DNA from: Gammaproteobacteria bacterium
Lineage (GTDB): Bacteria; Pseudomonadota; Gammaproteobacteria; Poriferisulfidales; Poriferisulfidaceae
DNA length: 64,000 bases
Assembly (NCBI GenBank): GCA_026706895.1
Contig: JAPOXW010000015.1
Location: forward strand, 28,475 to 92,474
Reading direction: 5' to 3'
The notes beneath the pieces are model-generated. The model made no database searches, was not told the origin of the DNA, and saw nothing but the letters and a program-made list of their open reading frames with translations. Made by a program: the position numbers and the translations under genes. Positions 2,254-25,772 of the stretch are shown piece after piece (within the stretch, counting starts at the first letter, position 1; each line of letters starts with the position of its first letter).

Positions 2254-2305
2254 GCCAGAACTATTTGGTGGATTTTTAGGACAGAATCAATAGGGGTTCT
2301 GAACA

Positions 2306-2572: not shown

Positions 2573-2603
2573 TCGGTCCGAATGAGCTGCTGCGATTTAT
2601 GTC

Positions 2604-4055: not shown

Positions 4056-4063
4056 TCTGGAAC

Positions 4064-4154: not shown

Positions 4155-4163
4155 GGTCAATGA

Positions 4164-8228: not shown

Positions 8229-8664
8229 CTCGACTCTCCCGAAGCGCCGTATCGACCGCCCGTCTCGCGATCTCGCCCGGGTATCCGCGCTGGTTCAGGA
8301 AGCGCAACTGCTGCTGCCGCGTCCCCGTTTTTCGATGCAAGGCTTCACAGGCGCGCTCGAACTCCCCTTCCCTGGCCAAAGACTCGAACTCCTGCGCAAT
8401 GTCTCCCGATACGCCGCGCTCGCGCAACTCACCTGCCACGCGAAGGCTGCCGTAACCGCGATCCATCAGGGAACGGGCACAGGCTTCCGCAAAACGCTGG
8501 TCGCTCTGCAGGTCCTTCTGGCGTAAGGTTGCCAGCGCGGCCTCGACCGCCTCGGCGGAAAAACTTCTCGCCCGCAGCTTGTCCCGTAACTCCCGGCTCG
8601 AATGTTCGCGTCGCGCCAGAAGACTGACCGCCTGCTGCACGGCGTCACGCCTCGGTTGCGGCAT
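8221..8664 (-). CDS. recX: recombination regulator RecX
   Basis: 147 aa helical repeat protein ([16 protein letters not shown]..) between recA and alaS. Overlaps both neighbours. Confidence 0.85.
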
Positions 8665-9694: not shown

Positions 9695-9761
9695 GGGTAT
9701 CTCAACCTCCCTGTGTCAAGGGCGGTCCGGTTCGCAGCAAGCGTATTATTCCACAGGGGGC

Positions 9762-9781
9762 ACCTCGGATTAATCCGAGGT
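9762..9781. repeat. perfect 20-bp palindrome ACCTCGGATTAATCCGAGGT between pncC stop and recA start
   Basis: Every position pairs with its mirror position. It can fold as an 8-bp stem with a TTAA loop. No U-tract follows on either strand. Confidence 0.6.
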
Positions 9782-9799
9782 CGATTCGCCCTGAAAGTA

Positions 9800-10288
9800 C
9801 TAGGAAATCTCTTCCGCCAATCGACGCAGCGCGTGCAGCACGGACTCCCGCCGGACCGCATCGCGACCCCCAGAGAAGTCTCGTCGTTCGCTGCGCATCT
9901 CCCCGCCCGCCCGCAGGAATGCGAACCACACGCAACCGACCGGCGCACGCTCCGTCCCGCCGGACGGTCCGGCCACGCCGCTGATCGCGCAGGCCAGGTC
10001 GCACTGCGCACGTTCCAGGGCTCCCGCCGCCATCGCCTCGACCACGGTCTGGGAGACCGCGCCCTCTTGGCGGATCAGTTCCGGATCGACACCCAGCGAT
10101 TGGCTTTTCGCCTCGTTGCTGTAAGTTACCCACCCGCATTCGAACCAGTCGGAACCGCCCGGCAGGTCGGTGCAGCATTTGGCCAGCCAGCCACCGGTGC
10201 AGGATTCGGCCACCGCCACCCGCAGGCCTTGCGCCCGGCTGCGCCCGGCCAACACTTTTGCCACCTCCAATAGCACTGAATCACTCAT
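9800..10288 (-). CDS. pncC: nicotinamide-nucleotide amidohydrolase (CinA C-terminal domain only)
   Basis: AVAESCTGGWLAKCCTDLPGGSDWFECGWVTYSNEAK..ISGVAGPSGG is the CinA/PncC signature. The start is placed at the ATG of MSDSVLLEV (10288) rather than the upstream ORF-track start. Confidence 0.85.
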   Translation of the reverse strand: MSDSVLLEVAKVLAGRSRAQGLRVAVAESCTGGWLAKCCTDLPGGSDWFECGWVTYSNEAKSQSLGVDPELIRQEGAVSQTVVEAMAAGALERAQCDLACAISGVAGPSGGTERAPVGCVWFAFLRAGGEMRSERRDFSGGRDAVRRESVLHALRRLAEEIS

Positions 10289-10341
10289 GCCCCAATCATA
10301 CCCGTTTGACAGATGCTCTCGCATGCTTTACATTTCTCAAA

Positions 10342-10364
10342 GTGTATTACAGAGTGTAATACAC
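10342..10364. promoter_or_regulatory. inverted repeat GTGTATTACA-GAG-TGTAATACAC, candidate operator of the nucleotidyltransferase/HEPN pair
   Basis: Perfect 10-bp arms with a 3-nt spacer. It ends immediately before the AGGAGG (10365-10370) that precedes the ATG at 10376, in the divergent pncC intergenic region. Confidence 0.5.
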
Positions 10365-10375
10365 AGGAGGATTCC

Positions 10376-10909
10376 ATGAATACCCCTATCATCAGTTTCC
10401 GCGTACGCCAGGATCAGCAAGCCGATGTGCGCGAATTGGTCAATTCCATCAAAGACGACCCGGATTTGATCGGCCTAGTCCTGGAATACGTTCGCAATGC
10501 ACCTCGGCCAAGGCACGAGGCCGCAGCGGCAGATGAGAGTCTTGGCCCATTCCGCAACGCGAAAGCTGCCCTTTCCGTTCTGACCATGAATCTGGCCATC
10601 GCATTCCAGCCCGATGCCATTTTCCTGTTCGGCAGCCGCGCATGTGGTACCGAACGCCCGGATAGTGACTTCGATCTGATGGTGGTCACCCCGGACGACC
10701 AGCCCCTCGACTACCTGACGGCCCGGAAACCCATTTCCGGGTGTGGTGTCCCGGTGGACGTAGTCCCATGCCAGTATTCTGCGTTTGAGAAGAATCGGAA
10801 CGTGCCCGGCATGCTCCCTTACGCGGTCGACCGGGAAGGAAAATTGCTGGACGCGCGCGTTGATGGCCCGTTCTGGAAACGCTATCGCGAGATGTTCCCC
10901 CTGCGATGA
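10376..10909 (+). CDS. nucleotidyltransferase-domain protein (MNT-type antitoxin candidate) with N-terminal extension
   Basis: IFLFGSRACGTERPDSDFDLMVV matches the GS-x9-12-DxD minimal nucleotidyltransferase motif. Start is set at the ATG 5 nt after AGGAGG. The stop overlaps the next ORF (ATGA). Confidence 0.65.
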   Translation: MNTPIISFRVRQDQQADVRELVNSIKDDPDLIGLVLEYVRNAPRPRHEAAAADESLGPFRNAKAALSVLTMNLAIAFQPDAIFLFGSRACGTERPDSDFDLMVVTPDDQPLDYLTARKPISGCGVPVDVVPCQYSAFEKNRNVPGMLPYAVDREGKLLDARVDGPFWKRYREMFPLR

Positions 10910-11316
10910 CCTCTCCGCTCGTCCTGGGATTTCTGAAGGCTGCCGAACGGGACATCGCCGGCATCGAGCGCCTCCTTCCAGATCTCCCAGACCTGGCAGC
11001 ATTCCACGCCCAGCAAGCCGTAGAAAAACTCGCACGCGCCGTGCGCCTGCACGAAGGACTCCCGGATCTTCGTACCCACGACATCACCCGAATTACCGAA
11101 CAACTAGCCCAAGAACACCCTCTCAGGAAAAGCTTCATCAAACTTGGCAGCTTAACTGGAGCGGCAACCGCCTGGCGTTATCCAGATGCCGCAGGCAAAT
11201 TCCCGAAGACTCCCGAACCTCGTGAAATTCAGGCGGCTCTCAAGCAGATAAAAAGCACTGAGGCCGAAATTCGCGACTGGCTCTCGGCTCCGCGGTCCTC
11301 CTCCGCAAACCTATAG
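10906..11316 (+). CDS. HEPN-domain protein (toxin candidate)
   Basis: 136 aa, all-helical. AAFHAQQAVEKLARAV and the ..LRTHDITRI.. segments resemble Pfam HEPN proteins that pair with nucleotidyltransferases. Translationally coupled to 10376-10909. Confidence 0.55.
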   Translation: MTSPLVLGFLKAAERDIAGIERLLPDLPDLAAFHAQQAVEKLARAVRLHEGLPDLRTHDITRITEQLAQEHPLRKSFIKLGSLTGAATAWRYPDAAGKFPKTPEPREIQAALKQIKSTEAEIRDWLSAPRSSSANL

Positions 11317-11384
11317 GCCGTCATCGCCACCTGCCTGTCGAACCGAACCGCAAGACCTACACCCAGACCGAACCCTTCCCGAAC

Positions 11385-11627
11385 ATGCACAACGACCGAG
11401 AATCCCAACAATCCGAATTTGACGGCAGCCAGCGCGGCAGATCAGGCTATGCCGGTGACGGGTTGGCCTTTTGGATTCCTTTTTGCTTCGCCGTCGTCAC
11501 GATACTCAACATCGCCGTCATAGCCAAGACGCTCACCGAAAAGCGTCTTGAAGACCGTATTCAAGAATATCTGGAAGACTGCATTGATCGCCCGGACATC
11601 TCTGACCAGGACCGTCGAGCGCCATGA
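11385..11627 (+). CDS. hypothetical small membrane protein
   Basis: 80 aa with one hydrophobic span (LAFWIPFCFAVVTILNIAVIA). No recognisable family and no clear RBS. Confidence 0.3.
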   Translation: MHNDRESQQSEFDGSQRGRSGYAGDGLAFWIPFCFAVVTILNIAVIAKTLTEKRLEDRIQEYLEDCIDRPDISDQDRRAP

Positions 11628-11932
11628 CCATGACCTGGGCAACCACCACCGCAATGGTCTGCCCGATGGAGTGGAATACCGGAACGTTGCCGCTGCCCTT
11701 GGGAGAGCCAGCAGACCATGGAAAAATGCGAAAAGCTCCCGAAGACCCGACTCGCAAGCATTGAGATTCATATCTAACTATTTGATTCTATTATAGAAAA
11801 AATGGTCTAAAAATTCCGACCATTTTTCCTTGATTTCTGTCGATTCCGTGTCATCATCTCGACTCGAGCCATGCAGACCCTTCCACGGAGGAGTCTCCCC
11901 ATATCACCCCATTCCTGTCGAGGAGGACTGAC

Positions 11933-12412
11933 ATGAACCCGAGTGCCAAAAAATCCGAGGCCGCGCCCGATTCGCCTATGCGAACTGCCCCGCTTCCGCC
12001 GAAATTTGATAGACTCAGTGTCATGAACGCGCTTCGAGCCGCCGCATTCAGTGAAGACCAAGCCACTGTTCTCGTCGAGACCCTCGGCGAAGCCCACCTC
12101 TGCTTAGCGACAAAGGACGACCTGGACCAAGCATTCAGCACACTGCGCAGCGACATCAAGACATCAGAAACCGGCATCCGTCGGGACATGGAGAAAATGG
12201 AAACCGGCATCCGCCATGACATGGAAAAGATGGAAGCCGGCATCCGCCACGACATGCTGGAGATGAAATCCGACCTTCGCGGCGAGATACAGGGGCTGCG
12301 TGGTGAGATGGAAGCCCGGTTCAACAAACTCTCTTGGCAAATCATGGCCAGCACAGGCGGAGCGACCATTGCCGGCACCAGCATTCTCGGCTTATTGATT
12401 CTCTTTAAATAG
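11933..12412 (+). CDS. DUF1640 / CCDC90-like coiled-coil protein with C-terminal membrane anchor
   Basis: 159 aa. AGGAGGA lies 5 nt upstream. Contains the repeated ETGIRxDMEKM heptad-like units and the terminal TM segment GGATIAGTSILGLLILF typical of DUF1640. Confidence 0.65.
   Translation: MNPSAKKSEAAPDSPMRTAPLPPKFDRLSVMNALRAAAFSEDQATVLVETLGEAHLCLATKDDLDQAFSTLRSDIKTSETGIRRDMEKMETGIRHDMEKMEAGIRHDMLEMKSDLRGEIQGLRGEMEARFNKLSWQIMASTGGATIAGTSILGLLILFK
12167..12265 (+). repeat. three in-frame tandem 33-bp units inside the DUF1640 gene
   Basis: The units are gaaaccggcatccgtcgggacatggagaaaatg / gaaaccggcatccgccatgacatggaaaagatg / gaagccggcatccgccacgacatgctggagatg. They encode ETGIRRDMEKM-ETGIRHDMEKM-EAGIRHDMLEM. 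Confidence 0.9.
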
Positions 12413-12956
12413 ACCTCTTCATGCCCGAAAGATCTAGGCAAACCATGTGCGTCTATCCAATGGGCTACGGGGCATTGGCGCCCGAAAAACACAAGTCTTG
12501 AAGGCAGGTTGTGACCAAACCCCGCCGGAATGTTCAACCTCCCCGCCACCCATACAAGGTGAACTTAAAAGATATTTTAATTGCCTTTGCCGTTGGTGCT
12601 GGAATATCTACCGTTTTCTTCAGCATCGTCACCGTCATGCTCTTAGCCGGCGGAATAATAGATTTCTCCTGATTCTCGGCATCCGGCTCCTAAGATAGTC
12701 ACTTCGCCCATACCCGGCCCTGTCGCCAAGGCCACCTGCTTGCACTCAAACCCGTCGAAATGTCCAGCAGATCAGTACCTCATTGTTAAGTTTGTTAGAA
12801 TTGTGCCATACAGTCATATTGCGAGGGATGGCTGGATGCAGATCGGTGATTGCGATCGCCTGATTGGCTTGAAACAAGGCGGCTACGGAGCGGCGGACGC
12901 CGGCATATCCTGGCCGTATTAAACGTTCTGCCCGCGTACCCTCGATACTGTTGAAC

Positions 12957-14129
12957 ATGGATGGAAGAGTTTCGGAATCAGGGCACAAGATGACTTCAGG
13001 GTCGAGCACGCCCGACAATTCATCGGCTGCGCCCGTTTTCGTCACCGGCGCGGCCGGGCATGTGGGCGCCAATCTCGTGCGCCGGCTACTCGACGAAGGT
13101 ACCCGGGTCCGGGTGCTGCTGAGACACGAAGAGAACAACGAAGCGCTGGAAGGCCTTGAGGTTGAACGCGTGCTCGGCGACCTGCGGGACTTGAATTCCG
13201 TCAGGCGTGCGGTCGAGGGCTGCCGAGGCGTCTATCACTGTGCGGCCAAGGTTTCGACCATCGAGGGAAACCACGCCCATCGTCGGGAAATATACGAATG
13301 CAACGTTCTCGGCACCCGCAACATGCTGCGGGCGGCACGGGAAGCGGAAGCTGGCCGGGTGGTCGTGACGGGTTCTTTCAGCGCGGTCGGATACAACCTG
13401 GATGACCCCTCCGCCCCCAGCGACGAGACGATGCTGTTCTACCCCATGGAACGCACGATGCCCTACGAGCGCAGCAAGACGCTCGTCGAACACGAGTGCT
13501 GGCGCGCCGCGTCAGCCGGGCAGGATGTCTTGGTCGCCACGTGCTGCGCAGTTGTGGGAGGCAGCGACTTTCTCCCCTCGCGACTGGGCAAGTCCATGTG
13601 CGCCTATGCCAACGGCAAGCTCCGCGCTTACGTTGATGGCGGCTTCGAATTCGTCGCGGCGCGGGACATCGTCGAAGGGCACCGGTTGTGCATGGACCGC
13701 GGCCGCTCGGGCGAAAAGTACATCTTCAGCAGCGAGTACAAGACCATCTCCGAGATCCTGGACTTGTGGGAGGAAGCCTCCGGCATTCCGCGCCCAAACC
13801 GGCGGATTCCGGTCCTCGCAATGCTCGCTTTCTCGGAAGCCGCAAGTTTTTACCTGAGCCGGTTCCATCCGAGTTTCCCCCAGCGTTTCACTCCCGGCGC
13901 CATCCGCCTGCTGCAAAAGTGCCGCCATGCCAACAACAGCAAGGCGAAAGAGGAACTCGGCTACCGGCCGACCAGCATCCGCGCCGCGGTCCACGAAGCC
14001 TACGCCTTCCACTACCGCCGCAACGCGATCACGAACCCGGACGCGAAACCCCCGTGCACGGACGGCACGGGACGGGTAGAAGAACCCATGCCGGATCAAG
14101 GCACACCCATCACTTCGGACGGAGGCTGA
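12957..14129 (+). CDS. sdmB: NAD(P)-dependent 3-beta-HSD/epimerase-family reductase, SdmB-like (sterol C-4 demethylation)
   Basis: The VFVTGAAGHVGANLVRRLL Rossmann motif, an extended SDR fold, and the gene immediately upstream of a Rieske oxygenase match the SdmA/SdmB pair described in Methylococcus. The start is ambiguous (TTG 12951, ATG 12957, ATG 12990). Confidence 0.6.
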   Translation: MDGRVSESGHKMTSGSSTPDNSSAAPVFVTGAAGHVGANLVRRLLDEGTRVRVLLRHEENNEALEGLEVERVLGDLRDLNSVRRAVEGCRGVYHCAAKVSTIEGNHAHRREIYECNVLGTRNMLRAAREAEAGRVVVTGSFSAVGYNLDDPSAPSDETMLFYPMERTMPYERSKTLVEHECWRAASAGQDVLVATCCAVVGGSDFLPSRLGKSMCAYANGKLRAYVDGGFEFVAARDIVEGHRLCMDRGRSGEKYIFSSEYKTISEILDLWEEASGIPRPNRRIPVLAMLAFSEAASFYLSRFHPSFPQRFTPGAIRLLQKCRHANNSKAKEELGYRPTSIRAAVHEAYAFHYRRNAITNPDAKPPCTDGTGRVEEPMPDQGTPITSDGG

Positions 14130-14130
14130 A

Positions 14131-15228
14131 ATGGACTCAATGACAAGCCCGCCTCCCGGCTTCGACGAGGCCAGCAACTTGCGACAGAAAGCGCGCGCCG
14201 CGGGCATGGACCCGGATTACTGGTACGCGGTCGAAGAAGTGCGCCGGGTCAAGCCGGGGACCGTGGTCGAGGTTGTTTTCTGGAAGCGTGCCATTGCGCT
14301 GTTCCGGGCGAAGGACGGCTCGTTTCATGCGGTCGAGGACCGCTGTGCCCATCGCCAGCTCAAGCTCTCCCTCGGCCATGTCGAGGACTGCCGGCTCGTC
14401 TGCGCCTACCATGGCTGGCAGTACGACGGAGGGGGGCAACGTGCCGGGGGGCCTCGCGAGCACCTCGGGGAAAACTGTGAGAACGTCTCGATCCGATCCT
14501 ACCCCGTGAAAGTCCGTTACGGCCTGGTCTGGCTGTTCCCCGGAGACCCGGAAAAGGCAGAGTCGCGGCAGATCCCGGACATCCCCGAGCTCGAGGGGCC
14601 GGACCGATGGGCCTGCGTCCCGCTCACCTTCACCTGGTCGGCCCACCACTCGATGGTGATCGACAACGTGAGCGATTTCTCCCACGCCCATCTGCACCGT
14701 CAATACCGCCCGTTCGTCGGCGCCACCCTCACCCGCTGCAAGACCATCGGCGACGACGTGCATCTTTCCTACGACACGCAGGTCGGACGCGGGCGCATCT
14801 CCGGGCTGTTCGTCGACCACAAAAAGCTCGACACCAATCACATGGATCTCTGCTACCAATACCCCTACCAGTGGTCGAACACCGATGACGCGATCAAGCA
14901 CTGGCTTTTCGTCCTCCCGATCGACGAACGGACCACCCGGACATTCTTCCTGTTCTACTTCAAGTCGCTGAAGATCCCCTTGCTGCCAATACACTTCCCC
15001 CGTCTCGCCATGACCGCGGTGATGAAGATTTCGAACCGTGTACTCATCGGTCCCCTGCTCCGCCAGGATCAATATGCGCTCGAAGGGGAGCAGGAGGGTT
15101 ACGAGAAACACTGGGACGCCCTTCCCGTCGAGTTCAACCCGGTGGTCGAGGCTTTCCAGGACGTGACCGTGCGCAAGTGGCGCGAATACCTGGCGCGCAA
15201 GGCGGAGAACGGCAGCGCTTATGCCTGA
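14131..15228 (+). CDS. sdmA: Rieske [2Fe-2S] non-heme iron oxygenase, SdmA-like (sterol C-4 methyl oxidation)
   Basis: Rieske motif CAHRQLKLSLGHVEDCRLVCAYHGW (CxH..CxxH). The VIDNVSDFSHAHLH segment lies where the mononuclear-iron ligands sit in this superfamily. GGAGG precedes the ATG, which is 1 nt after the sdmB-like stop. Confidence 0.65.
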   Translation: MDSMTSPPPGFDEASNLRQKARAAGMDPDYWYAVEEVRRVKPGTVVEVVFWKRAIALFRAKDGSFHAVEDRCAHRQLKLSLGHVEDCRLVCAYHGWQYDGGGQRAGGPREHLGENCENVSIRSYPVKVRYGLVWLFPGDPEKAESRQIPDIPELEGPDRWACVPLTFTWSAHHSMVIDNVSDFSHAHLHRQYRPFVGATLTRCKTIGDDVHLSYDTQVGRGRISGLFVDHKKLDTNHMDLCYQYPYQWSNTDDAIKHWLFVLPIDERTTRTFFLFYFKSLKIPLLPIHFPRLAMTAVMKISNRVLIGPLLRQDQYALEGEQEGYEKHWDALPVEFNPVVEAFQDVTVRKWREYLARKAENGSAYA

Positions 15229-16315
15229 ACTGCCCTTCTCGCTGGCCGCGCTGTCCGGCGGCACCCTGCTCGACGCGGCAGCCATGATGCTGGCCTTCTT
15301 CGGCTTCCTGTTCCTGGGTTCGATGCTGTTGCCCGGACGCCGGATTGCGGGCCCGGACTACGATGGAAAATCGAGGGTCTACAGGAGCAACGGCCTCGCC
15401 CTGTTCCTGCTGACCATGATCGTGGGAGGACTTGCCCAGATTTCCGGCTGGTTCTCCCTTTCGGTGCTGCATACCCACTTCCTCGCCCTGTTCGTGGTGG
15501 CGAACGTGTTCGCGTTTGCTTTTTCCGCCTTGCTGTACCACCAAGGCACCCGGACCCAGGGCGATTCCCCGAGGGGATTGGAGGGCTTCTTCTACGGCGT
15601 GGCGGGCCACCCGACCTGGCTCGGGGTGGACCTGAAGTTCTTCAGCTACCGCCCCTCCCTCATCGGCCTCGCATTGTTCAACGTCTCGTTCGCCGCCGTG
15701 CAGTACGAGACCTACGGCGAGTTGACCCTGGCGATGATGCTGTACCAGGCTTTCACCTTCCTGTACGTCCTCAACTACTTCCACTTCGAACACGGGATGA
15801 TCCACACCTGGGACATCGTCAGCGAGCGCTTCGGATGGATGCTGGTCTGGGGAGACTACGTGCTGGTGCCGTTTTTCTATTGCCTCGCCGGCTGGTGGCT
15901 GGTTCACGCAACCGAGCCCCTGCCCCCCGTCGCGGCCGTCGCGATCACCCTGCTGTTCGTCTTCGGCTTCTGGGTCTTCCGCGGCGCCAACGGGCAGAAG
16001 CACCGTTTCAGGCGCGACCCCCGCGCCACGATCTGGGGAAAGCCCGCCGAGTCCCTGGACGGGCGCCTGCTGGTCTCCGGATTCTGGGGGATCGGGCGGC
16101 ATCTCAACTATACCGGCGAGATCTGCATCTACCTTTCGTTCGCCCTGACCGCCGGACTCGCATCCTGGGTTCCCTACCTGCTGCCCGCGTGGCTGGCGGG
16201 GCTGCTGTGGCACCGCTCAAGACGCGACGATCGCCGCTGCCGCGCCAAGTACGGCGAACTGTGGGAGCGGTACACGAAGCGGGTACGTTTCGCGATGTTG
16301 CCGTTCGTCTATTGA
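15221..16315 (+). CDS. ERG4/ERG24-family sterol reductase (most likely C-14 reductase)
   Basis: 364 aa polytopic membrane protein. The C-terminal signature is LLVSGFWGIGRHLNYTGEI ... HRSRRDDRRCRAKYGELWERYTKRVRFAMLPFVY. Overlaps the upstream stop by 8 nt and sits next to CYP51. Confidence 0.8.
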   Translation: MPELPFSLAALSGGTLLDAAAMMLAFFGFLFLGSMLLPGRRIAGPDYDGKSRVYRSNGLALFLLTMIVGGLAQISGWFSLSVLHTHFLALFVVANVFAFAFSALLYHQGTRTQGDSPRGLEGFFYGVAGHPTWLGVDLKFFSYRPSLIGLALFNVSFAAVQYETYGELTLAMMLYQAFTFLYVLNYFHFEHGMIHTWDIVSERFGWMLVWGDYVLVPFFYCLAGWWLVHATEPLPPVAAVAITLLFVFGFWVFRGANGQKHRFRRDPRATIWGKPAESLDGRLLVSGFWGIGRHLNYTGEICIYLSFALTAGLASWVPYLLPAWLAGLLWHRSRRDDRRCRAKYGELWERYTKRVRFAMLPFVY

Positions 16316-16341
16316 GAACGGGAGATGGGAAATCTGACGAT

Positions 16342-17730
16342 ATGACCGCGGTACGCTCCACCCCGCTTTCGCCGCAAGGGACCCGAAGCGTCCCCGAGGT
16401 CGCGGGCCGGTGGCCGCTGATCGGCCATCTGCTGGATTTCCAGAAGGACCCGGTCGCGATGCTGCGGCGCGGCTGGCGCGAGCAGGGTGAGCTCATCCGG
16501 TTCCGGCTCGGTCCCCGCGATTTCTTCCTCTTCACCGGGCCCGAAGCCCACGACTTCTATTTCCACGCACCCGAAGACCAGCTCAGCGCCAAGGAGGTCT
16601 ACCAGTTCACGGTGCCCATCTTCGGGCGCGGCGTGGCTTACGACACCTCCCCCGAACTGATGGCCGAGCAACTGGGGTTCCTGTACCCGGCGCTCAGCGA
16701 AACCGCGATGCGCCGGTTCGCCCGCATCATGTTCGAGGAGACCCGGCAGTTTGCCGAGGACCTCGGCGAGAGCGGGGAAGTCGACCTGCCCCACGCGATG
16801 AACGAACTCACCGTCAAGATCGCCAGCCGCTGCCTCATTGGAGAGGAAGTCCGGGCCCAGCTGGACGCGGGGTTCGCCGAGGCTTACCACGAACTGCAAA
16901 ACGGCATCAACACCCTGGGCTTCTTTTTCCCCTATCTGCCGATTCCGGCGCATCGAAACCGCGACCGGGCCCGGCGAAAAGTGGCCAGGCTCTTCAGCCG
17001 GATCATGGCGGAACGCCGGCGGACCGAGGCCCGGCCCGACGATTTCATGCAGACGCTCATGGATGCCCGGTACAAGGACGGCCGCGCCCTGAGCGACGAC
17101 GAGATCACCGGGATCCTGCTGACCGCGTTGTTCGCGGGCCAGCACACCAGCGCGGTACTCGCCACCTGGACCCTCCTGGAGCTCCTGGGGGACCCCCCCT
17201 ACCTGGACCGGATCCGGGACGAAATGCAGGAAACCTACCGCGAGCCGGGAGCCATCAGCTTTGATACCCTCAAGCATCAGGTGACGCTGGAGCATGCCAT
17301 CCGCGAGAGCGAGCGGCTGCACCCGCCGCTGATCCTGCTGATCCGCAAGGTGCTCAAGCCCTTGCGCTACAAGGATCATGTCGTGCCGACCGGCGCCATG
17401 GCCATGGTGTCGCCGGCGGTCGCCCACCGGTTGCCTCACCTGTTTGCCGACCCGGACCGCTTCAATCCGGACCGGTTCGCCCCGCCTGCTTCCGAGAACA
17501 GGCAGCACCACTACGCCATGATCAGTTTTGGCGGCGGCAAGCACCGGTGCATCGGTGAGCATTTCGCTTACATGCAGTTGAAAGCAATCTGGACCGTGCT
17601 GTTCGACCGCTTTGATTTTCAGCCCAGCACCGAGTTTCCCGAACCGAATTACGGCAGCTGGGTGACGGGCCCCAGGGAACCCTGCCGAGTCCGTTACCGC
17701 CGCCGCCCGCAGGCCAGCATCTTCCAGTGA
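16342..17730 (+). CDS. cyp51: sterol 14-alpha-demethylase cytochrome P450 (CYP51)
   Basis: YQFTVPIFGRGVAYD (B-prime helix CYP51 signature), the I-helix FAGQHTS, and the heme loop FGGGKHRCIGEHFA. Colinear by eye with Mycobacterium tuberculosis CYP51. No ferredoxin domain is fused. Start is at the ATG of MTAVRST; an in-frame TTG at 16312 is an alternative. The longer ORF-track start (15835) lies inside the reductase gene. Confidence 0.9.
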   Translation: MTAVRSTPLSPQGTRSVPEVAGRWPLIGHLLDFQKDPVAMLRRGWREQGELIRFRLGPRDFFLFTGPEAHDFYFHAPEDQLSAKEVYQFTVPIFGRGVAYDTSPELMAEQLGFLYPALSETAMRRFARIMFEETRQFAEDLGESGEVDLPHAMNELTVKIASRCLIGEEVRAQLDAGFAEAYHELQNGINTLGFFFPYLPIPAHRNRDRARRKVARLFSRIMAERRRTEARPDDFMQTLMDARYKDGRALSDDEITGILLTALFAGQHTSAVLATWTLLELLGDPPYLDRIRDEMQETYREPGAISFDTLKHQVTLEHAIRESERLHPPLILLIRKVLKPLRYKDHVVPTGAMAMVSPAVAHRLPHLFADPDRFNPDRFAPPASENRQHHYAMISFGGGKHRCIGEHFAYMQLKAIWTVLFDRFDFQPSTEFPEPNYGSWVTGPREPCRVRYRRRPQASIFQ

Positions 17731-20700
17731 GCCTCTCCCCTTCCCGGCATTACGACGTCGCGATTGTCGGCGGGGGACCAGTCGGCAGTGTGTGCGCGCT
17801 CGCCCACGCGCGAAAAGGCGCCCGGGTTGTCCTGCTCGAAGCGAGCCCCGAGGCTTCCAAGCGACTGGCGGGAGAATGGTTGCACCCCCCCGCCGTGCGG
17901 ATACTGCGCGAGATCGGGATCGGGCTCGACACGCAGCCTCCCACCGGCGCAGGCAACGGGTTCGTGGTGTACCCGGAAGACGACTCGGAACCGATCATAC
18001 TTCCCTATCCGGATGGCGCTCACGGATTGGCCTGCGAGCACGCGGTACTCGTCTCGCATCTGCACGAAGCGATCGAGAACGAATCGAGCATTGATTTTAT
18101 TTTCAATGCACAAGTCCGCGAGGTCGTAGACGGGCGAATCACTTTTACTCGCAACGGGTCCGACGAGTCCGTCGCAGCTGCGCGGATCGTCGGCGCCGAC
18201 GGTCGGGGTTCGGTCGTGCGTCGATCACTGGGCTTGCCGACGAACCAGAAAACCTGCTCGTGGATGGTGGGCGTTCTGGTCGACGAAGTGACGTTGCCGC
18301 TGGAAGGTTATGGATACGTGTTGGGGGGCGGACCCGGGCCAGTCCTCATGTACCGCTTGGGGGAGCGTGGCGTACGCATCGTCGTTGATGTCCCGGCGGA
18401 TCGTTGGACGCCCCGGGATCGGATTGGATTCCTGTTGGACTCGTATGCCGGTTGGTTGCCGGAATCAGTCCGACCCGCGTTTGTTGATGCGCTGCGGGCG
18501 GGACAGTTCCGCACTGCCAGCAATAAATTGAGGCTGCGTGTCACCTATGGAAGCCCGCGCCGGGTGCTGATCGGCGATGCGGCTGGACACTATCACCCCA
18601 TGTCGGCGGTCGGAATCACCCTTGGTTTCGGTGATGCGCTTGCACTCGCCGAGAACGGGGACTTTCGCGACTTTGCCAAGAAGCGCTTCCAAGCGATCCG
18701 TGCCCCGGAGTTCCTCGCCATGGGACTCTACGAGGTCTTTGCCGATCATCGGACCGAGGTGGTGGCCCTCCGGCATGCGGTCTACCGAGGCTGGCGAGCA
18801 AGTTCTGCGATGCGCGACCGGACCATGCGTTTACTCGCCTGTGAAAACACATCGGTCGCCCACCTGAGTTCTGCTTTTTTCACGACGATGGCCCGAGCGG
18901 TTGCCGGAGAAATCCCGCGGTCCTTCGACAAACTTGCCTGGCATCGGGCCCGAGACACCTTCAATTCACTCTCGGGCCGCATCAAATGGCTGCTGCGGGG
19001 TGCCCGGATGTTGCACCGGGCGAGAAGCACGGGCGGAGGAGAGGACGAGCAAATTCGGGACGTCTGGTCCCACACGTTCCTGGTCTCCATCCCGTCGAAA
19101 GCCGACGACTCGCAGCCCGCCCGCCCGTGGGCGGTCGAGTCGCCCGATGCCGGCCCGGCATTGAAGAGTGCAAGCGAGCGCCTGCTGGGTCTCCAGGATG
19201 GGGACGGCGCCTGGGAAGGCGAGATGGTCTGGTGTCCCATGCTCACCGCGCAGTACGTGCTGCTGCACTACGCCATGGAGCAGCCGCTCGATCCCGACCG
19301 ACGCCGGCGCGTGCTGCGGTCTTTCGAACGAACCCGTCTCGAAGGCGGCGCATGGGGCCTGCACGAGCACCCGCCCCCCAACCTGTTCGTCACCACGCTG
19401 GTTTACGTCGCGGCAAGGCTGCTCGGTGTCGAGCGGGACGATCCTCTGCTCGAGCCAGCCCGGCGATTCCTGCAGACGGAAGAAGTCCTTGGCATTCCGA
19501 GCTGGGGAAAATTCTGGCTGGCGCTCCTCAATCTCTACGACTGGCGCGGAATCAATGCCATCCTGCCGGAACTGTGGAGCCTGCCACGCTGGATTCCGCT
19601 GCACCCTTCCAACTGGTATTGCCATACCCGGCTCATCTACATGGCGATGGCGGCTGTCTATTCACATCGATTCCAGATGCCCGTCACGCCGTTGATCGCA
19701 TTGCTGCGAAAAGAGCTGTATCCCGAGGGCTTTGCCAACGTCGGCTTTTCCGCGGGCCGCAATCGCCTGCGAAGCGCCGATCTCCACATGCGGCCTAGCG
19801 TGTGGCTTCGGATCGGGTACGGGTTTTCTCGGTTGTTCGAGCGATTCCATGGCAAACACCTGCGTGCTCGGTGCCTGAACGCGATCACCGAGCGCATCAG
19901 ATGGGAACTGCGAACGACCAATCACACGAGCATTTCTCCGGTCAGCGGGCTTCTCAATATCCTGGCCTTATGGCTGCGCGACCCGGACGATCCCGACAGT
20001 CGCCAGGCACTCGCGAAGTTGGACGACTGGATCTGGGAAGACGAGGAATACGGGGCGCGGGTCACCGGGGCAAGAAGCATTTCGTGGGATACCGGCTTCG
20101 CCCTGCAGGCATTGGAATCCATGTCCGAACTCGACTTGAACCCTGAAGTTCGAAACGCCCTCCAACGCGGGGCCGACTTCCTGGAAACGCAACAAATCAA
20201 GACCAGTTTCGAAGGGTTCCATGAGGCTTTTCGAAACGACCCCAAGGGTGGCTGGTGCTTCGCCGGGCAGTGGCATGGCTGGCCGGTCACCGACTGCACT
20301 GCGGAAGCGGTGCTCGGGATTATCGCGGCCCACCGCGAGGCGACGAACACGACCATGCTCAAGGAGGCGATTCCCTTCATGCTGCGCGGCCAGAACCGCG
20401 ATGGCGGCTTCGGCAGCTATGAAGCACAGCGCTCCGCAATCGGACTCGAATGGCTGAATCCGGCCGAGATGTTCGGCGAGTCGATGACCGAGCATTCCTA
20501 TGTCGAGTGCACCGCATCCTGCCTCGCGGCACTCTCCGCCTGCAAGAAGCACTTTCCGGACATCACGGACCAAGCAGTGACGGACGCGATGTCGCGAGCC
20601 GGCGCCTGGCTTCGCCGAACCCAGGCGAGCAATGGGTCGTGGCGCGGCGTATGGGGGGTTCAGTTCATCTACGGCACCGCTTTCGGGATCAAGGGCCTGC

Positions 20701-21185
20701 TCGCCGCCGGAGCCCGTCCCGGCGACCCGGCGCTGCGCCTGGCCTGCCGATGGCTGCTGGACCGTCAGCGTGGAGACGGGGGATGGGGCGAGCACTACAG
20801 CGGCTGCTTCACCGGCCGATACGTTGCACATGAGGAAAGTCAGGTCATCCAAACCGCATGGGCATTGATTGCGCTGCTTGAGGCGGAGGATTCGAACTGG
20901 GCCGCGATCTCGCGAGGCGCCCGGTTCCTGCTCGACACCCAGAATGCAGATGGGGCATGGCCCAGGCAAGACATGGCCGGAGTCTTTTTCCGCACGGCCC
21001 TGCTGGACTACGTCCTGTATCGGCAGTATTTCCCCCTGCGCGCACTCGGCCTTTACGAACAGCGACGTCGAGCCCGGCTGGAGCTGGCAGCCTCTGATTC
21101 CCATACCGCCGGTGCAACGGCGGACGGCACGATGCCCCTGGCGGCGACATTGGAAGAGCCGCGCAGCGCACACGCCCCTTCATGA
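17727..21185 (+). CDS. fused squalene monooxygenase (N-terminal ~430 aa) - oxidosqualene cyclase (C-terminal ~680 aa)
   Basis: The N-terminal part has DVAIVGGGPVGS (FAD), GEWLHPPA, GADGRGSVVRR and GDAAGHYHPMSAVGITLGFGDAL, colinear with eukaryotic squalene epoxidase motifs. The C-terminal part has repeated QW-type motifs (QDGDGAWEGE, QNRDGGFGSY, QASNGSWRGVWG, QRGDGGWGE, QNADGAWP), WYCHTRLIYMAMAAVY, and the oxidosqualene-cyclase catalytic motif GWPVTDCTAEAV (Asp codon at 20292). One uninterrupted frame. The GTG start overlaps the cyp51 stop (GTGA). Confidence 0.85.
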   Translation: MSLSPSRHYDVAIVGGGPVGSVCALAHARKGARVVLLEASPEASKRLAGEWLHPPAVRILREIGIGLDTQPPTGAGNGFVVYPEDDSEPIILPYPDGAHGLACEHAVLVSHLHEAIENESSIDFIFNAQVREVVDGRITFTRNGSDESVAAARIVGADGRGSVVRRSLGLPTNQKTCSWMVGVLVDEVTLPLEGYGYVLGGGPGPVLMYRLGERGVRIVVDVPADRWTPRDRIGFLLDSYAGWLPESVRPAFVDALRAGQFRTASNKLRLRVTYGSPRRVLIGDAAGHYHPMSAVGITLGFGDALALAENGDFRDFAKKRFQAIRAPEFLAMGLYEVFADHRTEVVALRHAVYRGWRASSAMRDRTMRLLACENTSVAHLSSAFFTTMARAVAGEIPRSFDKLAWHRARDTFNSLSGRIKWLLRGARMLHRARSTGGGEDEQIRDVWSHTFLVSIPSKADDSQPARPWAVESPDAGPALKSASERLLGLQDGDGAWEGEMVWCPMLTAQYVLLHYAMEQPLDPDRRRRVLRSFERTRLEGGAWGLHEHPPPNLFVTTLVYVAARLLGVERDDPLLEPARRFLQTEEVLGIPSWGKFWLALLNLYDWRGINAILPELWSLPRWIPLHPSNWYCHTRLIYMAMAAVYSHRFQMPVTPLIALLRKELYPEGFANVGFSAGRNRLRSADLHMRPSVWLRIGYGFSRLFERFHGKHLRARCLNAITERIRWELRTTNHTSISPVSGLLNILALWLRDPDDPDSRQALAKLDDWIWEDEEYGARVTGARSISWDTGFALQALESMSELDLNPEVRNALQRGADFLETQQIKTSFEGFHEAFRNDPKGGWCFAGQWHGWPVTDCTAEAVLGIIAAHREATNTTMLKEAIPFMLRGQNRDGGFGSYEAQRSAIGLEWLNPAEMFGESMTEHSYVECTASCLAALSACKKHFPDITDQAVTDAMSRAGAWLRRTQASNGSWRGVWGVQFIYGTAFGIKGLLAAGARPGDPALRLACRWLLDRQRGDGGWGEHYSGCFTGRYVAHEESQVIQTAWALIALLEAEDSNWAAISRGARFLLDTQNADGAWPRQDMAGVFFRTALLDYVLYRQYFPLRALGLYEQRRRARLELAASDSHTAGATADGTMPLAATLEEPRSAHAPS

Positions 21186-21248
21186 AGAAAAATTCGAGAC
21201 TGGAGAATAATCAAAGTGTACGCAGTTGGATGTACCTGAATATCCGGA

Positions 21249-22892
21249 TCACGGCGACGAGTCTCGCAGATCAATGAGCCAGCTCTCTGGTATCACCTTG
21301 TCGTAGACCTCGGGGAAGGCGTTTCCGGCAGCGTACTTGCTGCGCACATCCCGGTAGAGCCGATGCTCGAACATATGCTCGAATTCGGTGCGGGTCATAC
21401 ATATGTCGGCGTAGAGCATCTGATAGCCACCGCGCTCACGAACAAACTTCTCCAGGCGGCGCATGGTTGGCACCTGGTCGTAGTTGCCGGCTTTGGCTTT
21501 CGTCGGGATGCCATAAATGCCGAGGTTGACGTACATCTGGCTGCTGCCGTTGTTGGCCGGATTCCGCAAAAAACCCTCGTTCGCGCCGTGGTCGAACAGG
21601 CGCACCGGGTCGACCCAGAGTGGGTAGATGTCGAAGAGCCCGTCGCTGAGGCGGACAGACTCGGCAAGGGACCCGATCGGCACCATGATGTCCTGCACGA
21701 CGCGGTTTTCGAAAGCTCGGCGCCGGATCTCCCGGGTGACTGTCAGTTTCAACAGAGAGACTTTCGGCGCGCCCATCCAAGCCCACAAATGGCGATACCA
21801 GGGGGTGTTGGCAAAAGGAATGAGGTCCTTGAGCTGGAAGTACACCGAAGGCGTGTGGCGGTGGAAATAATGGCGGGCGGGAATGTACTCGCTGGCGGCC
21901 CCCGTCTTCAGGCACTGGGCAACATGGCTGTAGAACCACGGCTTGTAGTAATCATTGATGCGATTGATGCGTGCGCCGCGCGGGGGCGTCGCGCAGTCGC
22001 CCGCGAGGATGACGCCGGATTCCCGGGAGAAGACGAGTCCTTCTATGAAACGCGGGGCGTCCGGGGAGGCGGCAAGCTCCTCAAGCCGGGCGCAGAAAGC
22101 GTCGATCGAATGGAACGGTTCGTAGTCGAGCTTGACGTGCGACCGAACCGGGACAATGCGAAGTTCGACACTCACGAGGAAGCCGAGGGTGCCATGGGAA
22201 CAGGGCAAGGCGTGGAAAAGATCGGCGTTCTGGTTACGCGTGGCACGGACAAGCTCCCCGCTGGCGGTTACGATCTCGAAGGCCTCGACCGATTCGAACA
22301 GGCAACCCTCTCGGTGGCTGGTCGTCGCAATGCCGATACCCATGCACAAGCCTCCAACGGTGAGATCGTCCATCTCGGCCTGGACGCTCAATGCGAACCC
22401 CTTGGGGACGAGAAAGGCAGTGATGTCGCCCATGGTGACCATCGGCTCTGCACGAACGATCAGACGCTTCTCGTCAACCTCAAGGATCTCGCAAAGGTTG
22501 ATGGAAACCTGCTGCATGTCCTTCTTGAACTCGGCGGAGCGTACCGACATCGTTTGCCATGGCTTGCGTGCGGTACACATGAATTTGCCCGTGGCAGCGC
22601 AAGCCTGCACTTGGGCTTGAATCACCCGGACAGCATTGTCGTGTTCGATGCCGGTGTTCCTCAACCTCCGGCGGATCCGTTTTCGGATGCCCTCGACATG
22701 ACGGTAGACGAAGCTGGCAGGAACCGCAAAACCGGCGATGACGAGCCCGCGGTTTCTGGTCAGGAAATTGTCGAGGAACTTCGGGAGTCGCACAGGCAGA
22801 GCTTCGGAAAAATTGAGGATAAGGTACTTGATTTGACGAAACCAAAGGCCATGCGGACTTTCCGGTGCAATTAGTGCACATGGAAAAGTCAT
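21249..22892 (-). CDS. FAD-linked delta-24 sterol reductase (DHCR24/DWF1-like)
   Basis: Long colinear similarity to human DHCR24 read by eye: CTARKPWQTMSVR.., INLCEILEVDEKRLIVRAEPMVTMGDITAFL, DDLTVGGLCMGIGIATTSHREG, YYKPWFYSHV, YIPARHYFHRHTPSVYFQLKDLIPF, FPEVYDKV. The first ATG is at 22892; the ORF-track start at 22913 is TTG. Confidence 0.85.
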   Translation of the reverse strand: MTFPCALIAPESPHGLWFRQIKYLILNFSEALPVRLPKFLDNFLTRNRGLVIAGFAVPASFVYRHVEGIRKRIRRRLRNTGIEHDNAVRVIQAQVQACAATGKFMCTARKPWQTMSVRSAEFKKDMQQVSINLCEILEVDEKRLIVRAEPMVTMGDITAFLVPKGFALSVQAEMDDLTVGGLCMGIGIATTSHREGCLFESVEAFEIVTASGELVRATRNQNADLFHALPCSHGTLGFLVSVELRIVPVRSHVKLDYEPFHSIDAFCARLEELAASPDAPRFIEGLVFSRESGVILAGDCATPPRGARINRINDYYKPWFYSHVAQCLKTGAASEYIPARHYFHRHTPSVYFQLKDLIPFANTPWYRHLWAWMGAPKVSLLKLTVTREIRRRAFENRVVQDIMVPIGSLAESVRLSDGLFDIYPLWVDPVRLFDHGANEGFLRNPANNGSSQMYVNLGIYGIPTKAKAGNYDQVPTMRRLEKFVRERGGYQMLYADICMTRTEFEHMFEHRLYRDVRSKYAAGNAFPEVYDKVIPESWLIDLRDSSP

Positions 22893-23162
22893 GGCGCGGC
22901 AAGCACTCGGCAAGGCGTACCGCGAGGGGGTTTCTATGCTTCAATTGTACGACGTGTTCCCCGGGGGCATCCGAGCAATGATCTGAGAAGATGATCCGGG
23001 GTGAAACCCGATGCCGCCCGCACCGCGAAACACTGCCACCCACGAAACACCAAGTCGCAAGCCACTGCCTTGCCGGTGCAAGGACTGTCGTTTCAGGTTC
23101 ACCCCGGGCCTCGCCGACAGCTTTCCTGAGAGTGTCAAAAATTTGTCAAAATAGCCAGCATC

Positions 23163-25772
23163 ATGGCACCGCAACCGGCTCCACTGTTGACTTCACCCAC
23201 GCCGCAGCAGCAGCATACCCCCAGCATGCGCCAATACCTTGAGTTCAAGGCGCAATACCCCCAGCACCTGCTGCTCTACAGAATGGGAGACTTCTACGAG
23301 CTGTTCTTCGAGGACGCCAAGCGCGGCTCCGAATTGCTGGACATCGTGTTGACCGAGCGTGGCCGCTCCAAGGGCCAGCCCATCCCGATGGCAGGCATCC
23401 CGGTAGTTTCGCTCGATTCCTATCTCTCAAAACTCGTCGACCTTGGAGAATCCGTGGTGGTTTGCGAACAGGTCGGCGACAGCCCCTCCGGTCGGGGGCC
23501 GATGGAACGCCAGATCTCGCGCATCGTCACGCCCGGAACGCTGATCGAGGACGAACTGCTGGACGCCGGGCGCGACACCCTGCTGCTTGCGCTGTGGCCG
23601 GGGGATCCGATCGGGCTGGCCAGCCTGAACCTGAGCTCGGGCCGTTTCAACGTGATGGAGCTTCCGTCCATCGAAGACCTGTACGCGGAACTGGAACGCC
23701 TCCGTCCAGCGGAAATCCTGTACCCGGAGTCGAACACCCCCCCGGACTGGGAAGACACGCACTGGCAGCCTCTTTCGGATTGGCATTTCGACGTTGAGAC
23801 CGCCACACGGCTCTTGTGCCAACAACTCGGGGTCCGTGACCTGTCCGCCTTTGACTGTCAGGATGCACCCTCCGCCACCGGAGCCGCCGGAGCCTTGCTC
23901 TACTACGCCCAAGAGACTCAACGGGCAGCCCTGCCGCACATTACGAGCCTGCAAAGGGAGCGGCGCGATACCCACATCTACCTGGATGCCACCAGCCGAC
24001 GTAATCTCGAACTGGAGCAGACCATCTCTGGCGACTCCCGCCACAGCTTGCTCGGCGTTTTGGACAAAACCGTCACGGCCATGGGCCGCCGTTGCCTCAG
24101 CCGATGGGTCCAGTCTCCCCTTCGCGATCGGGAAATGCTGGCGACACGCCACCAAATCGTTTCTCACCTGCTGGACAACACGCACCGTGCCCCGATCCGC
24201 GAACAGTTGAGGAAAGTCTCCGACATTGAGCGTGTCATCGCCCGCCTTGCGCTGTATACCGCTTCACCGCGGGACCTGTGCGGCCTGGCTCAGACCCTGC
24301 AGCGCCTGCCGGACCTGCGCCGCCTGCTGGAGAACATCGACGCAGCAGAATTCGACTCCTACCGTGCCCATCTGCAATCGGACCCGGAACTGGCTGCACA
24401 TCTGGCCTCAGCGCTCGCGGGAAATCCTCCTCCGACCATTCGCGAAGGCGGCGCTATCGCGGCGGGATTCGATTCCGAACTGGATGAACTGCGCGAACTG
24501 TCGCGCGGAGCCGACAATTTCCTCCTGGAGATGGAAGCGACCGAACGGGAGCAGACCGGCATCGCCCAACTCAAAGTCGCCTACAACCGGGTTCACGGCT
24601 ACTACATCGAGATCCCGCGCAGTCAGGCCGCGCGGGTGCCCGACCACTACCGACGGCGACAGACGCTCAAGAACTACGAACGCTATCTGACATCGGAACT
24701 GAAGGAGTTCGAGGATCGCGTCCTGAGTGCGCGCAGCCGGGCGCTGGAGCGGGAGAAACAGGTCTACCAAGATCTCCTGGAAAGCCTGACACCACACCTG
24801 AACCACTTCAAGCAATGCGCAGCCGCGCTGTCCGAACTGGACGTGCTCTGCAGCTTCGCCGAGCAGGCCAAGGCACACCACTACTGCTGCCCCGAACTGG
24901 TCGACGAACCCGGCATCGAGATCGAAGCCGGCCGCCACCCGGTAATCGAACTGACTTGGGACGAACCATTTGTACCCAACGACACGCTGCTCTCCGAGCA
25001 ACGCCGCCTGCTCCTCGTCACCGGCCCGAACATGGGCGGCAAATCCACCTACATGAGGCAGACCGTACTGATCGTGCTGATGGCCTGCATCGGCAGCCAC
25101 GTGCCGGCCAAGCAGACCCGGATCGGCCCCATCGACCGTATCTTCACCCGAATCGGGGCCTCCGACGACCTGACTTCGGGTCGCTCCACGTTCATGGTCG
25201 AGATGACGGAAGCCGCCAACATCCTGCACCACGCCTCCGAATACAGCCTGGTATTGATGGATGAGATTGGGCGCGGTACCAGCACTTTCGACGGGATGGC
25301 ACTGGCGCTGGGCTGTGCCGAATACCTGGCCACCCGAAACCGGGCCTTCACCCTTTTCTCCACGCACTACCTCGAACTGACCCAGCTGGCCGAAACCCAT
25401 CCTGGGATCATCAACCTGCACTTGGACGCCATGATGCATGGTCAGCAGATCGTCTTCCTGCACGCAGTCAAGGAAGGACCCGCCAGCCAGAGCTACGGCC
25501 TGCAGGTCGCGCGCCTCGCGGGCATTCCCGCGCCGGTGCTGGAACGGGCCCAGTCATACCTGTTGGAACTCGAGGACGACAGCACCCAGCGCTGGGCACG
25601 CAGCAATCCACAAAAAGACTTGTTCGTGCCGCCCTCTGATCCTCCATCCGTCCCGGCCGCTCTGGAACGTCTCCGACAGGTGAAGCCCGACCAGTTGTCG
25701 CCAAAGGAAGCCCTGGACCTGATTTATGAATTGCAGAAACTGGATACGGATTCGAGTAATCGGACTGACTAG
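23163..25772 (+). CDS. mutS: DNA mismatch repair protein MutS
   Basis: 869 aa. [34 protein letters not shown], Walker [14 protein letters not shown], and STHYLELT. Confidence 0.97.

Follow-up and report, generated by a model that had tools for sequence, protein, structure and literature searches.

The closest described relative of the locus examined here is msbA-F, an operon published in 2020 from a gammaproteobacterial symbiont of the sponge Melophlus sarasinorum (Mohanty et al. 2020, PMC7074536; GenBank MT026193). In that operon, msbA encodes an NAD(P) oxidoreductase and overlaps the Rieske oxygenase gene msbB, and the products of msbC and msbD are a membrane sterol reductase and a lanosterol demethylase, respectively (PMC7074536). 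We investigated a 64,000-nucleotide (nt) stretch of a gammaproteobacterial genome (assembly GCA_026706895.1, contig JAPOXW010000015.1, positions 28,475 to 92,474), hereafter called the window, which carries a putative sterol operon whose genes match the first five msb genes in order and content. The two loci also share a predicted bifunctional epoxidase/lanosterol cyclase with the diagnostic valine and a sponge gammaproteobacterium as host. They differ at the 3′ end, where the window lacks the sterol methyltransferase gene msbF and instead has, beside the epoxidase/cyclase fusion, a DHCR24 homolog, a gene undescribed in the msb paper; furthermore, no glycosyltransferase locus was seen in the window.

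An ERG24-CYP51-LSS core has been reported from 115 of 537 Ircinia symbiont genomes belonging to 10 phyla (Kelly et al. 2022, PMC9531527). The gene trees of these 'clusters of steroid genes' are incongruent with the genome tree, horizontal transfer has been invoked, and omega values range from 0.13 to 0.26 (PMC9531527). Their 5′ flank holds a 'dihydroflavonol-4-reductase' gene and a gene for a hypothetical protein, evidently the SdmB-like and SdmA-like genes described below, and their 3′ end holds an opposite-strand methyltransferase or squalene synthase gene (FDFT1) (PMC9531527). The window shares with them the three-gene core, the two upstream genes and the signs of transfer and purifying selection. 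It differs in its DHCR24 homolog at the 3′ end, and neither the Candidatus Porisulfidus lineage to which we assign it nor the insertion site between cinA and mutS is described in PMC9531527. Neither the 3′ sterol methyltransferase nor the squalene synthase of the msb and steroid-gene clusters was found in the window by tblastn and domain scans. 'Fused SMO/OSC homologs' and sponge-metagenome clusters with sdmA and sdmB were mentioned in 2023 (PMC10070321), and the fusion is also mentioned in PMC7074536.

Better-studied systems are more distant. Methylococcus capsulatus uses the same families for cyclisation, C-14 demethylation and bacterial-type C-4 demethylation, and its CYP51 structures (7jj1, 6mcw) are the best structural matches of the window's CYP51. 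However, its CYP51 is fused to a ferredoxin and its squalene monooxygenase and cyclase are separate proteins, whereas the window shows the opposite on both counts, its CYP51 having no fused ferredoxin domain. In addition, no bstABC transporter genes are linked in the window, and its SdmA/B-like proteins score below the methanotroph equivalog cutoffs. The 21-kb cluster of Calothrix sp. NIES-4105 and the myxobacterial cholesterol pathways likewise work de novo with SdmAB homologs, with a canonical DHCR24-type enzyme in Enhygromyxa (PMC10202945, PMC12004948). In contrast to the window, which has none of these, they possess a C-8 isomerase and further desaturation enzymes, in some cases a C-24 reductase of the geranylgeranyl-reductase type, and they reach cholesterol.

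We read the locus as most probably a chromosomal copy of a horizontally acquired sponge-symbiont sterol operon that has lost its methyltransferase gene and would make an unalkylated sterol with a saturated side chain, likeliest for the symbiont's own membranes. Five genes run on the + strand: an SdmB-like NAD(P)-dependent short-chain dehydrogenase/reductase (SDR) gene (msbA equivalent; 12957–14129 from an ATG, with an alternative TTG at 12951 from which the list of open reading frames (ORFs) gives 392 amino acids (aa)), an SdmA-like Rieske non-heme-iron oxygenase gene (msbB equivalent; 14131–15228, 365 aa), an ERG4/ERG24-family membrane sterol reductase gene (msbC equivalent; 15221–16315, 364 aa), the gene of the sterol 14-alpha-demethylase CYP51 (msbD equivalent; from ATG 16342 or TTG 16312 to 17730), and the squalene epoxidase/oxidosqualene cyclase fusion (msbE equivalent; 17727–21185), a single ORF of 1152 aa. 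One base separates the SdmB-like stop from the SdmA-like start, the SdmA-like and ERG24 genes overlap by 8 nt, and the CYP51 and fusion genes share a GTGA overlap; the ERG24/CYP51 junction is a 4-nt overlap if TTG 16312 is used and a 26-nt gap if ATG 16342 is used. The five co-directional genes are translationally coupled and, judged from the gene overlaps alone, are probably read as one transcript. The DHCR24-like gene, which encodes an FAD-dependent sterol delta-24 reductase homolog, is convergent with them (21249–22793, − strand). Its longest ORF starts at 22913 (554 aa); because homologs measure 507–528 aa, GTG 22793 (514 aa) is the likely start.

The operon is widespread. A scan of one genome per bacterial species returned 476 species-representative genomes encoding a relative of the fusion, and we compared the best 80 loci (L001–L080), 61 of which keep the five-gene order colinear within 9 kb. 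Labels among these 80 include Gamma- and Alphaproteobacteria, Binatia, Nitrospirales, Bryobacterales, Vicinamibacterales, Opitutales, Rhodothermales and Longimicrobiales. The closest fusion relatives (83–92% identity) come from sponge metagenome-assembled genomes labelled Candidatus Porisulfidus, 'uncultured Chromatiales' or Gammaproteobacteria. Across the operon, the window's proteins are 83–95% identical to the Porisulfidus copies and still 65–81% identical to those of other lineages and phyla (L009–L080). Synonymous divergence between the window and the Binatia, Nitrospirales and alphaproteobacterial operon copies is 0.55–0.82, which does not exceed the 0.4–0.85 of recA, alaS and mutS between Porisulfidus species. 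A divergence this low is hard to explain except by recent transfer of the operon between phyla, with the qualification that shared GC-rich codon usage may deflate the synonymous values somewhat.

Within the genus, the operon appears to be under constraint. Compared with the closest Porisulfidus relatives (L001–L007), the ratio of non-synonymous to synonymous substitution rates (dN/dS) is about 0.06–0.20 across all six window genes, with 0.11–0.18 for the SdmB-like gene, 0.06–0.14 for the SdmA-like gene, 0.11–0.20 for ERG24 and 0.15–0.19 for the DHCR24-like gene (the latter against L002, L004 and L005). Since these ratios are low, the six genes are maintained by purifying selection and are not decaying.

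The fusion protein combines an N-terminal FAD squalene epoxidase domain at about aa 1–400 (model matches at residues 9–391) with a C-terminal oxidosqualene cyclase domain at about aa 478–1113. Its Pfam matches were SE (74 bits, cutoff 20), FAD_binding_3 (86 bits), SQHop_cyclase_N (172 bits) and SQHop_cyclase_C (181 bits). The epoxidase domain carries GGGPVG at aa 15 and matches human squalene monooxygenase (6c6n) at 77 bits. The cyclase domain scored 505 against TIGR01787 (squalene/oxidosqualene cyclases), above the cutoff of 323, and matched human lanosterol synthase (1w6k) at 450 bits versus 172 bits for a squalene-hopene cyclase (1gsz). Its VTDCTAEA aligns with human VSDCTAEA, which contains the catalytic DCTAE and not DxDD, and valine occupies the position of human V453. 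Among bacterial cyclases tested by lipid analysis, valine at the 453 position goes with lanosterol and isoleucine with cycloartenol (PMC4919349). The fusion shares 92% identity with QIJ55911.1, a protein from an 'uncultured bacterium' that is probably MsbE.

For CYP51, the top 56 solved-structure matches were all CYP51 or sterol 14-alpha-demethylase entries, led by 7jj1 and 6mcw (354 bits, E 1e-104), and the first P450 outside this family followed at 154 bits. FGRGVAYD in the B′ region, AGQHTS in helix I and the heme-thiolate motif FGGGKHRCIG are all present, and the protein is predicted to remove the 14-alpha methyl group of a lanosterol-type substrate. The ERG24 protein matched Pfam ERG4_ERG24 at 239 bits (profile positions 73–432), and its best solved structure was a delta(14)-sterol reductase (4quv, 257.8 bits), aligned from chain residue 78 to the C-terminus. 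From these best matches and the position beside CYP51, delta-14 reduction is its predicted activity. The operon-borne ERG24 homologs of L001–L080 are about 364 aa long and likewise lack the first ~55–75 residues of 4quv and of the Pfam model.

The first two genes encode a putative C-4 demethylation pair. The SdmB-like protein belongs to the extended SDR family (Pfam Epimerase 116 bits, 3Beta_HSD 71 bits), has a GxxGxxG motif at aa 33, and scored highest among NCBIfam models against NF052578 SdmB (298.7 bits), with HpnA second (230 bits). The SdmA-like protein matched Pfam Rieske (72.9 bits) and VanA_C (53.9 bits), carries CAH...CAYH (CxH..CxxH) at aa 72–94, and had NF052579, the 4beta-methylsterol monooxygenase SdmA, as its top NCBIfam model (405.7 bits). 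Their adjacent genes lie upstream of ERG24-CYP51-cyclase, an arrangement kept in 61 of the 80 loci. We predict that the SdmA-like protein acts as the C-4 methyl oxidase and the SdmB-like protein as the C-4 decarboxylase and 3-keto reductase.

Assignment of the sixth protein took a different route. Its Pfam match is generic (FAD_binding_4, 49 bits), and it is 42% identical over 499 aa (E 3e-141) to human DHCR24, a strong match but not an independent one. Database homologs at 47–61% identity carry the Joint Genome Institute (JGI) name delta24-sterol reductase. Because the solved-structure search returned only distant flavoprotein oxidases, with no DHCR24 structure among the matches, its membership of the family is drawn from the comparison with human DHCR24 and the homolog names. 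A DHCR24 homolog is linked to the operon in the unrelated lineage L082 as well, and in other carriers it lies elsewhere in the genome; one homolog, for example, is found outside the L065 locus but on the 4.15-Mb contig that holds it. The L082 cluster (8896–21548, with ATP-citrate-lyase genes nearby) is a larger, undescribed tailoring set: besides the DHCR24 homolog and the epoxidase/cyclase fusion, it comprises a methyltransferase, a GPP34-P450 fusion, a second gene of the desaturase family and an amine-oxidase-like flavoprotein.

These assignments bear out the enzymology of the original prediction, which had been made from the window's letters and ORF translations. The six ORFs, their strands and their overlaps agree with the ORF list, the only correction being the DHCR24-like start (22793 for 22913). 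All ten motifs that it quoted occur in the translations, namely the three CYP51 motifs given above, GRHLNYTGE, RCRAKYGELWERY, DCTAE, DDLTVGG, YYKPWF, FPEVYDKV and CxH..CxxH. Profile and structure-database searches placed each ORF in the sterol family that it had named, and the pathway logic from epoxidation to delta-24 reduction holds at the level of sequence. Three competing assignments were also considered and rejected: a DxDD squalene-hopene cyclase by DCTAE and the 450 versus 172 bits, a non-CYP51 P450 by the 354 versus 154 bits and the CYP51 motifs, and a generic vanillyl-alcohol-oxidase-type flavoprotein by the DHCR24 alignment and the homolog names.

What sets the window apart from its relatives is the 3′ end. 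A sterol methyltransferase gene (Sterol_MT_C domain at 74 bits, YEFGWGQSFHF motif) directly follows the fusion in all nine closest relatives (L001–L008, L081), and a methyltransferase stands in this position in 47 of the 80 related loci. In L002, L004, L005 and L081, the methyltransferase is followed, on the opposite strand, by a desaturase-family gene and then by the DHCR24 homolog, giving an eight-gene locus. The window shows neither of the two intervening genes, and tblastn found no remnant of a methyltransferase or desaturase anywhere in its 64 kb. DNA alignment located the break at 21213–21216, inside the 63 nt that separate the fusion from the DHCR24-like gene. On its left side, through ~21,215, the window aligns with L002 and L004 over the end of the fusion and the bases that immediately precede their methyltransferase start codon; on its right side, from ~21,216, it aligns with L002 in the spacer immediately beyond the stop codon of DHCR24. 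The switch is clean and falls in a short AAA run. This looks like a deletion of ~2.5 kb in the window's lineage, which would have brought the DHCR24 homolog beside the fusion, and it is the parsimonious reading because no close relative lacks a methyltransferase directly after the fusion and 47 of the 80 loci have one there.

The desaturase-family protein of the relatives (470–484 aa, with His boxes) is encoded at 14539–15993 (− strand) in L004 and at 11607–13019 in L081, and is also present in L002, L005, L024 and L052. We regard it as a candidate uncharacterised sterol-tailoring enzyme.

A gene loss of this kind could also be the first step of pathway loss, with the window holding a decaying relic from which the methyltransferase and the desaturase-like gene have already gone. 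The ~2.5 kb deletion inferred against all nine closest relatives would fit such a course, as would the variability of the 3′ end within the genus. Nevertheless, all six ORFs are intact with their catalytic motifs, dN/dS stays at 0.06–0.19 even when the DHCR24 homolog beside the junction is included, and the overlapping start and stop codons have been kept, so that we find decay scarcely credible. We tentatively propose, with rather less than even confidence, that the 3′ end, which varies among the Porisulfidus relatives, is a swappable side-chain module within one genus, existing as methyltransferase alone, as methyltransferase with desaturase-like gene and reductase, or as reductase alone.

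Taken as a functional operon, the locus suggests the following route. Squalene made elsewhere in the genome would be converted to 2,3-oxidosqualene by the N-terminal domain of the fusion and cyclised to lanosterol by its C-terminal domain. CYP51 would then remove the 14-alpha methyl group to leave a delta-8,14 diene, which the ERG24-type reductase would saturate at delta-14 to a delta-8 monoene. The SdmA/SdmB-like pair would remove one or both C-4 methyl groups, and the DHCR24 homolog would saturate the delta-24 bond of the side chain. Because the methyltransferase is missing, the side chain is expected to be unalkylated and of the cholestane type, and the predicted product is thus a non-alkylated, 14-demethylated sterol with a saturated side chain, most likely destined for the symbiont's own membranes.

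Two features of this product cannot be called from sequence. How many C-4 methyl groups SdmAB homologs remove, one or two, varies with the lineage: methanotroph SdmAB takes off one and Calothrix SdmAB both, and Enhygromyxa requires a third enzyme (PMC10202945). The C-4 methylation state is therefore not callable. The same applies to the position of the ring double bond, because M. capsulatus, the best-studied bacterial producer, accumulates sterols with a C-8/C-14 double bond (PMC10942540). The delta-8, 4-methyl or 4-desmethyl sterol named by the original prediction is accordingly more specific than the evidence supports (PMC10202945, PMC10942540). Its observation that no delta-8,7 isomerase, C-5 desaturase or delta-7 reductase is present was correct for the window.

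Several observations weigh against our reading of the locus. The SdmA-like (405.7 bits) and SdmB-like (298.7 bits) scores lie well under the NCBIfam equivalog cutoffs of these families, 600 bits each, and the msb authors suggested other redox tailoring for the Rieske/SDR pair (PMC7074536). The cyclase scored 733 against TIGR03463 osq_cycl, below the cutoff of 851, and at the T381 and C449 positions, which are Thr and Cys or Gln in lanosterol synthases, it carries Ala and His, respectively. Because Ala and His occupy these other two classical specificity positions, lanosterol is the likely but not certain product. The ERG24 homolog lacks the N-terminal segment of MaSR1 and is ~55–75 residues shorter than MaSR1 and the Pfam model. 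A deletion here, as opposed to an insertion in the relatives, is the parsimonious choice, and the junction, known from the assembly alone, may reflect mis-assembly. Promoter and terminator scans of 11.3–23.3 kb gave no signal above shuffled expectation; as nothing exceeded chance, they neither support nor refute a single transcript. Squalene synthase and the redox partners of CYP51, the Rieske oxygenase and the epoxidase are not in the window. To our knowledge, the literature contains no assay of an enzyme from this operon family, nor does it link any sterol to these symbionts.

The low Sdm scores leave room for the proposal published for the homologous msb locus (PMC7074536), in which the cluster would make a specialised triterpenoid aglycone, the 30-norlanostane core of sarasinoside-type saponins, with the Rieske/SDR pair performing other oxidations such as that giving the C-23 oxo group. 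The 92% identity of the window's fusion to QIJ55911.1 points the same way. Yet hundreds of symbiont genomes, spread over many sponge genera and phyla, carry the operon (PMC9531527), whereas the sarasinosides in PMC7074536 come from Melophlus only, and the genes scanned in the 64-kb window comprise neither a glycosyltransferase nor another tailoring gene. SdmA and SdmB remain the top-scoring families, and their characterised homologs demethylate C-4 (PMC10202945). The functionalised side chain of the sarasinosides also fits a delta-24 reductase poorly. On this balance, a saponin aglycone appears decidedly unlikely here, though it may hold for Melophlus, and a membrane sterol remains the product that we favour.

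A further alternative concerns the destination of the product and not its chemistry. The enzymes might act mainly on host or dietary sterols, or feed intermediates to the sponge in a shared pathway. The account in PMC10070321 cites a Vaceletia holo-transcriptome in which sterol transcripts were partly bacterial and partly sponge-derived, and the cluster is enriched in sponge symbionts relative to pelagic bacteria (PMC9531527, PMC10070321). The window has no squalene synthase, and its pathway ends before delta-5 sterols, both of which would suit such sharing. An epoxidase/cyclase fusion, however, makes sense only for de novo synthesis from squalene, the msb symbiont owns a squalene synthase on another scaffold (PMC7074536), and the window has no gene for transport or export linked to the locus. 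We therefore consider a shared pathway unlikely and retain de novo synthesis for the symbiont itself as the preferred reading.

The remainder of the window is ordinary chromosome. Upstream of the locus lie alaS, recX, recA and cinA (recA and cinA at 8645–10324, − strand; Pfam RecA 456 bits, CinA 175 bits), and downstream lie mutS (23163–25772, + strand; Pfam MutS_I to MutS_V), purM, tldD/pmbA, genes of the bc1 complex, his and aro genes, infB and nusA. In L001 and L003–L007, the operon lies between the same two flanks, alaS-recX-recA-cinA and mutS-VWA-arsC, and the mutS flank recurs in L081. AlaS, RecA and MutS are 90–100% identical to the copies of L001 and L003–L007 (RecA 95–99%). Because the flanking genes are this similar and the operon sits at the same place, we assign the window to the lineage of Candidatus Porisulfidus, sponge-associated sulfur-oxidising gammaproteobacteria. 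Within the group of L001 and L003–L007, the operon site is fixed between cinA-recA and mutS. L008, also labelled Candidatus Porisulfidus, has the operon and methyltransferase, but none of the window's flanking genes was matched within 10 kb; its operon is at a different chromosomal place, through either separate acquisition or rearrangement. A repeat search around the window's locus found no flanking direct or inverted repeats marking a mobile element or attachment site, and an Rfam scan of the window returned a single tRNA, with no riboswitch or other RNA element near the operon.

Among the predicted genes scanned across the 64 kb, there was no further sterol gene in the form of a squalene synthase, methyltransferase, isomerase or C-5 desaturase. 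Hidden sterol genes elsewhere in the window were considered and rejected, as the other scanned genes match housekeeping or unrelated families or none.

Some neighbouring features deserve mention. Between cinA and the operon (10313–11316, + strand), a nucleotidyltransferase gene (NTP_transf_2/Polbeta) overlaps a HEPN gene by 4 nt, a pair that looks like a toxin-antitoxin or defence-type module and is kept in L001 and L003–L007; L081 has a pair with the same NTP_transf_2/HEPN domains on the opposite flank of the locus, where it separates the DHCR24 homolog from mutS. The operon's immediate upstream neighbour (11854–12549, − strand) is a 231-aa ORF with no Pfam match and four tandem 33-nt (11-residue) repeats at 12134–12280, which is 34–70% identical or absent in the Porisulfidus relatives. 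Farther left, a low-GC islet at 2254–4160 (GC 0.52 at 2–4 kb versus ~0.61 in adjacent 2-kb windows) looks like a small acquired insert. It contains a 300-aa ORF (2604–3506) and a 131-aa ORF without Pfam match (3660–4055), and it adjoins a tRNA gene (4067–4154, − strand) and a CsrA-like small ORF (4164–4352, − strand). At 61918–63922 (+ strand, GC 0.49), beside rimP-nusA-infB, two overlapping ORFs, one with the DPPW motif of MT-A70-type DNA methyltransferases and the other with an HNH-like C-terminus, probably form a restriction-modification or related mobile module, as judged from the translations only.

Set against the literature, the original prediction is partly supported: its enzymology was right, while the novelty, the conserved six-gene unit and the specific product that it claimed were not borne out. 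The rarity that it attached to the cluster gives way to an operon already published as msbA-F (PMC7074536), with its core known from sponge symbionts of 10 phyla (PMC9531527), and its contrast with dispersed genes in Methylococcus capsulatus was overstated. What is conserved is the operon of five genes, which a sterol methyltransferase gene usually follows; the DHCR24 gene is the neighbour of the fusion in the window only owing to the absence of the methyltransferase and desaturase-like genes.

Bacterial sterol synthesis bears on the use of sterane fossils as markers of early eukaryotes and sponges, and on the question of which organisms make the unusual sterols of sponges. The present locus does not overturn current views but refines the picture published between 2020 and 2023, to which it adds the chromosomal setting in Porisulfidus, a low synonymous divergence between this copy and those of other phyla, and a methyltransferase-minus, reductase-plus variant, and it suggests that side-chain tailoring genes are gained or lost over short evolutionary distances. 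If the 3′ end is indeed a swappable module, the sterols of closely related symbionts would differ, being 24-alkylated in some and plain cholestane-type in others. In that case, the window would represent a natural methyltransferase knock-out with its reductase under selection, offering a comparison for the role of side-chain alkylation and bearing on the bacterial share in sponge sterols and in sponge-type sterane biomarkers.

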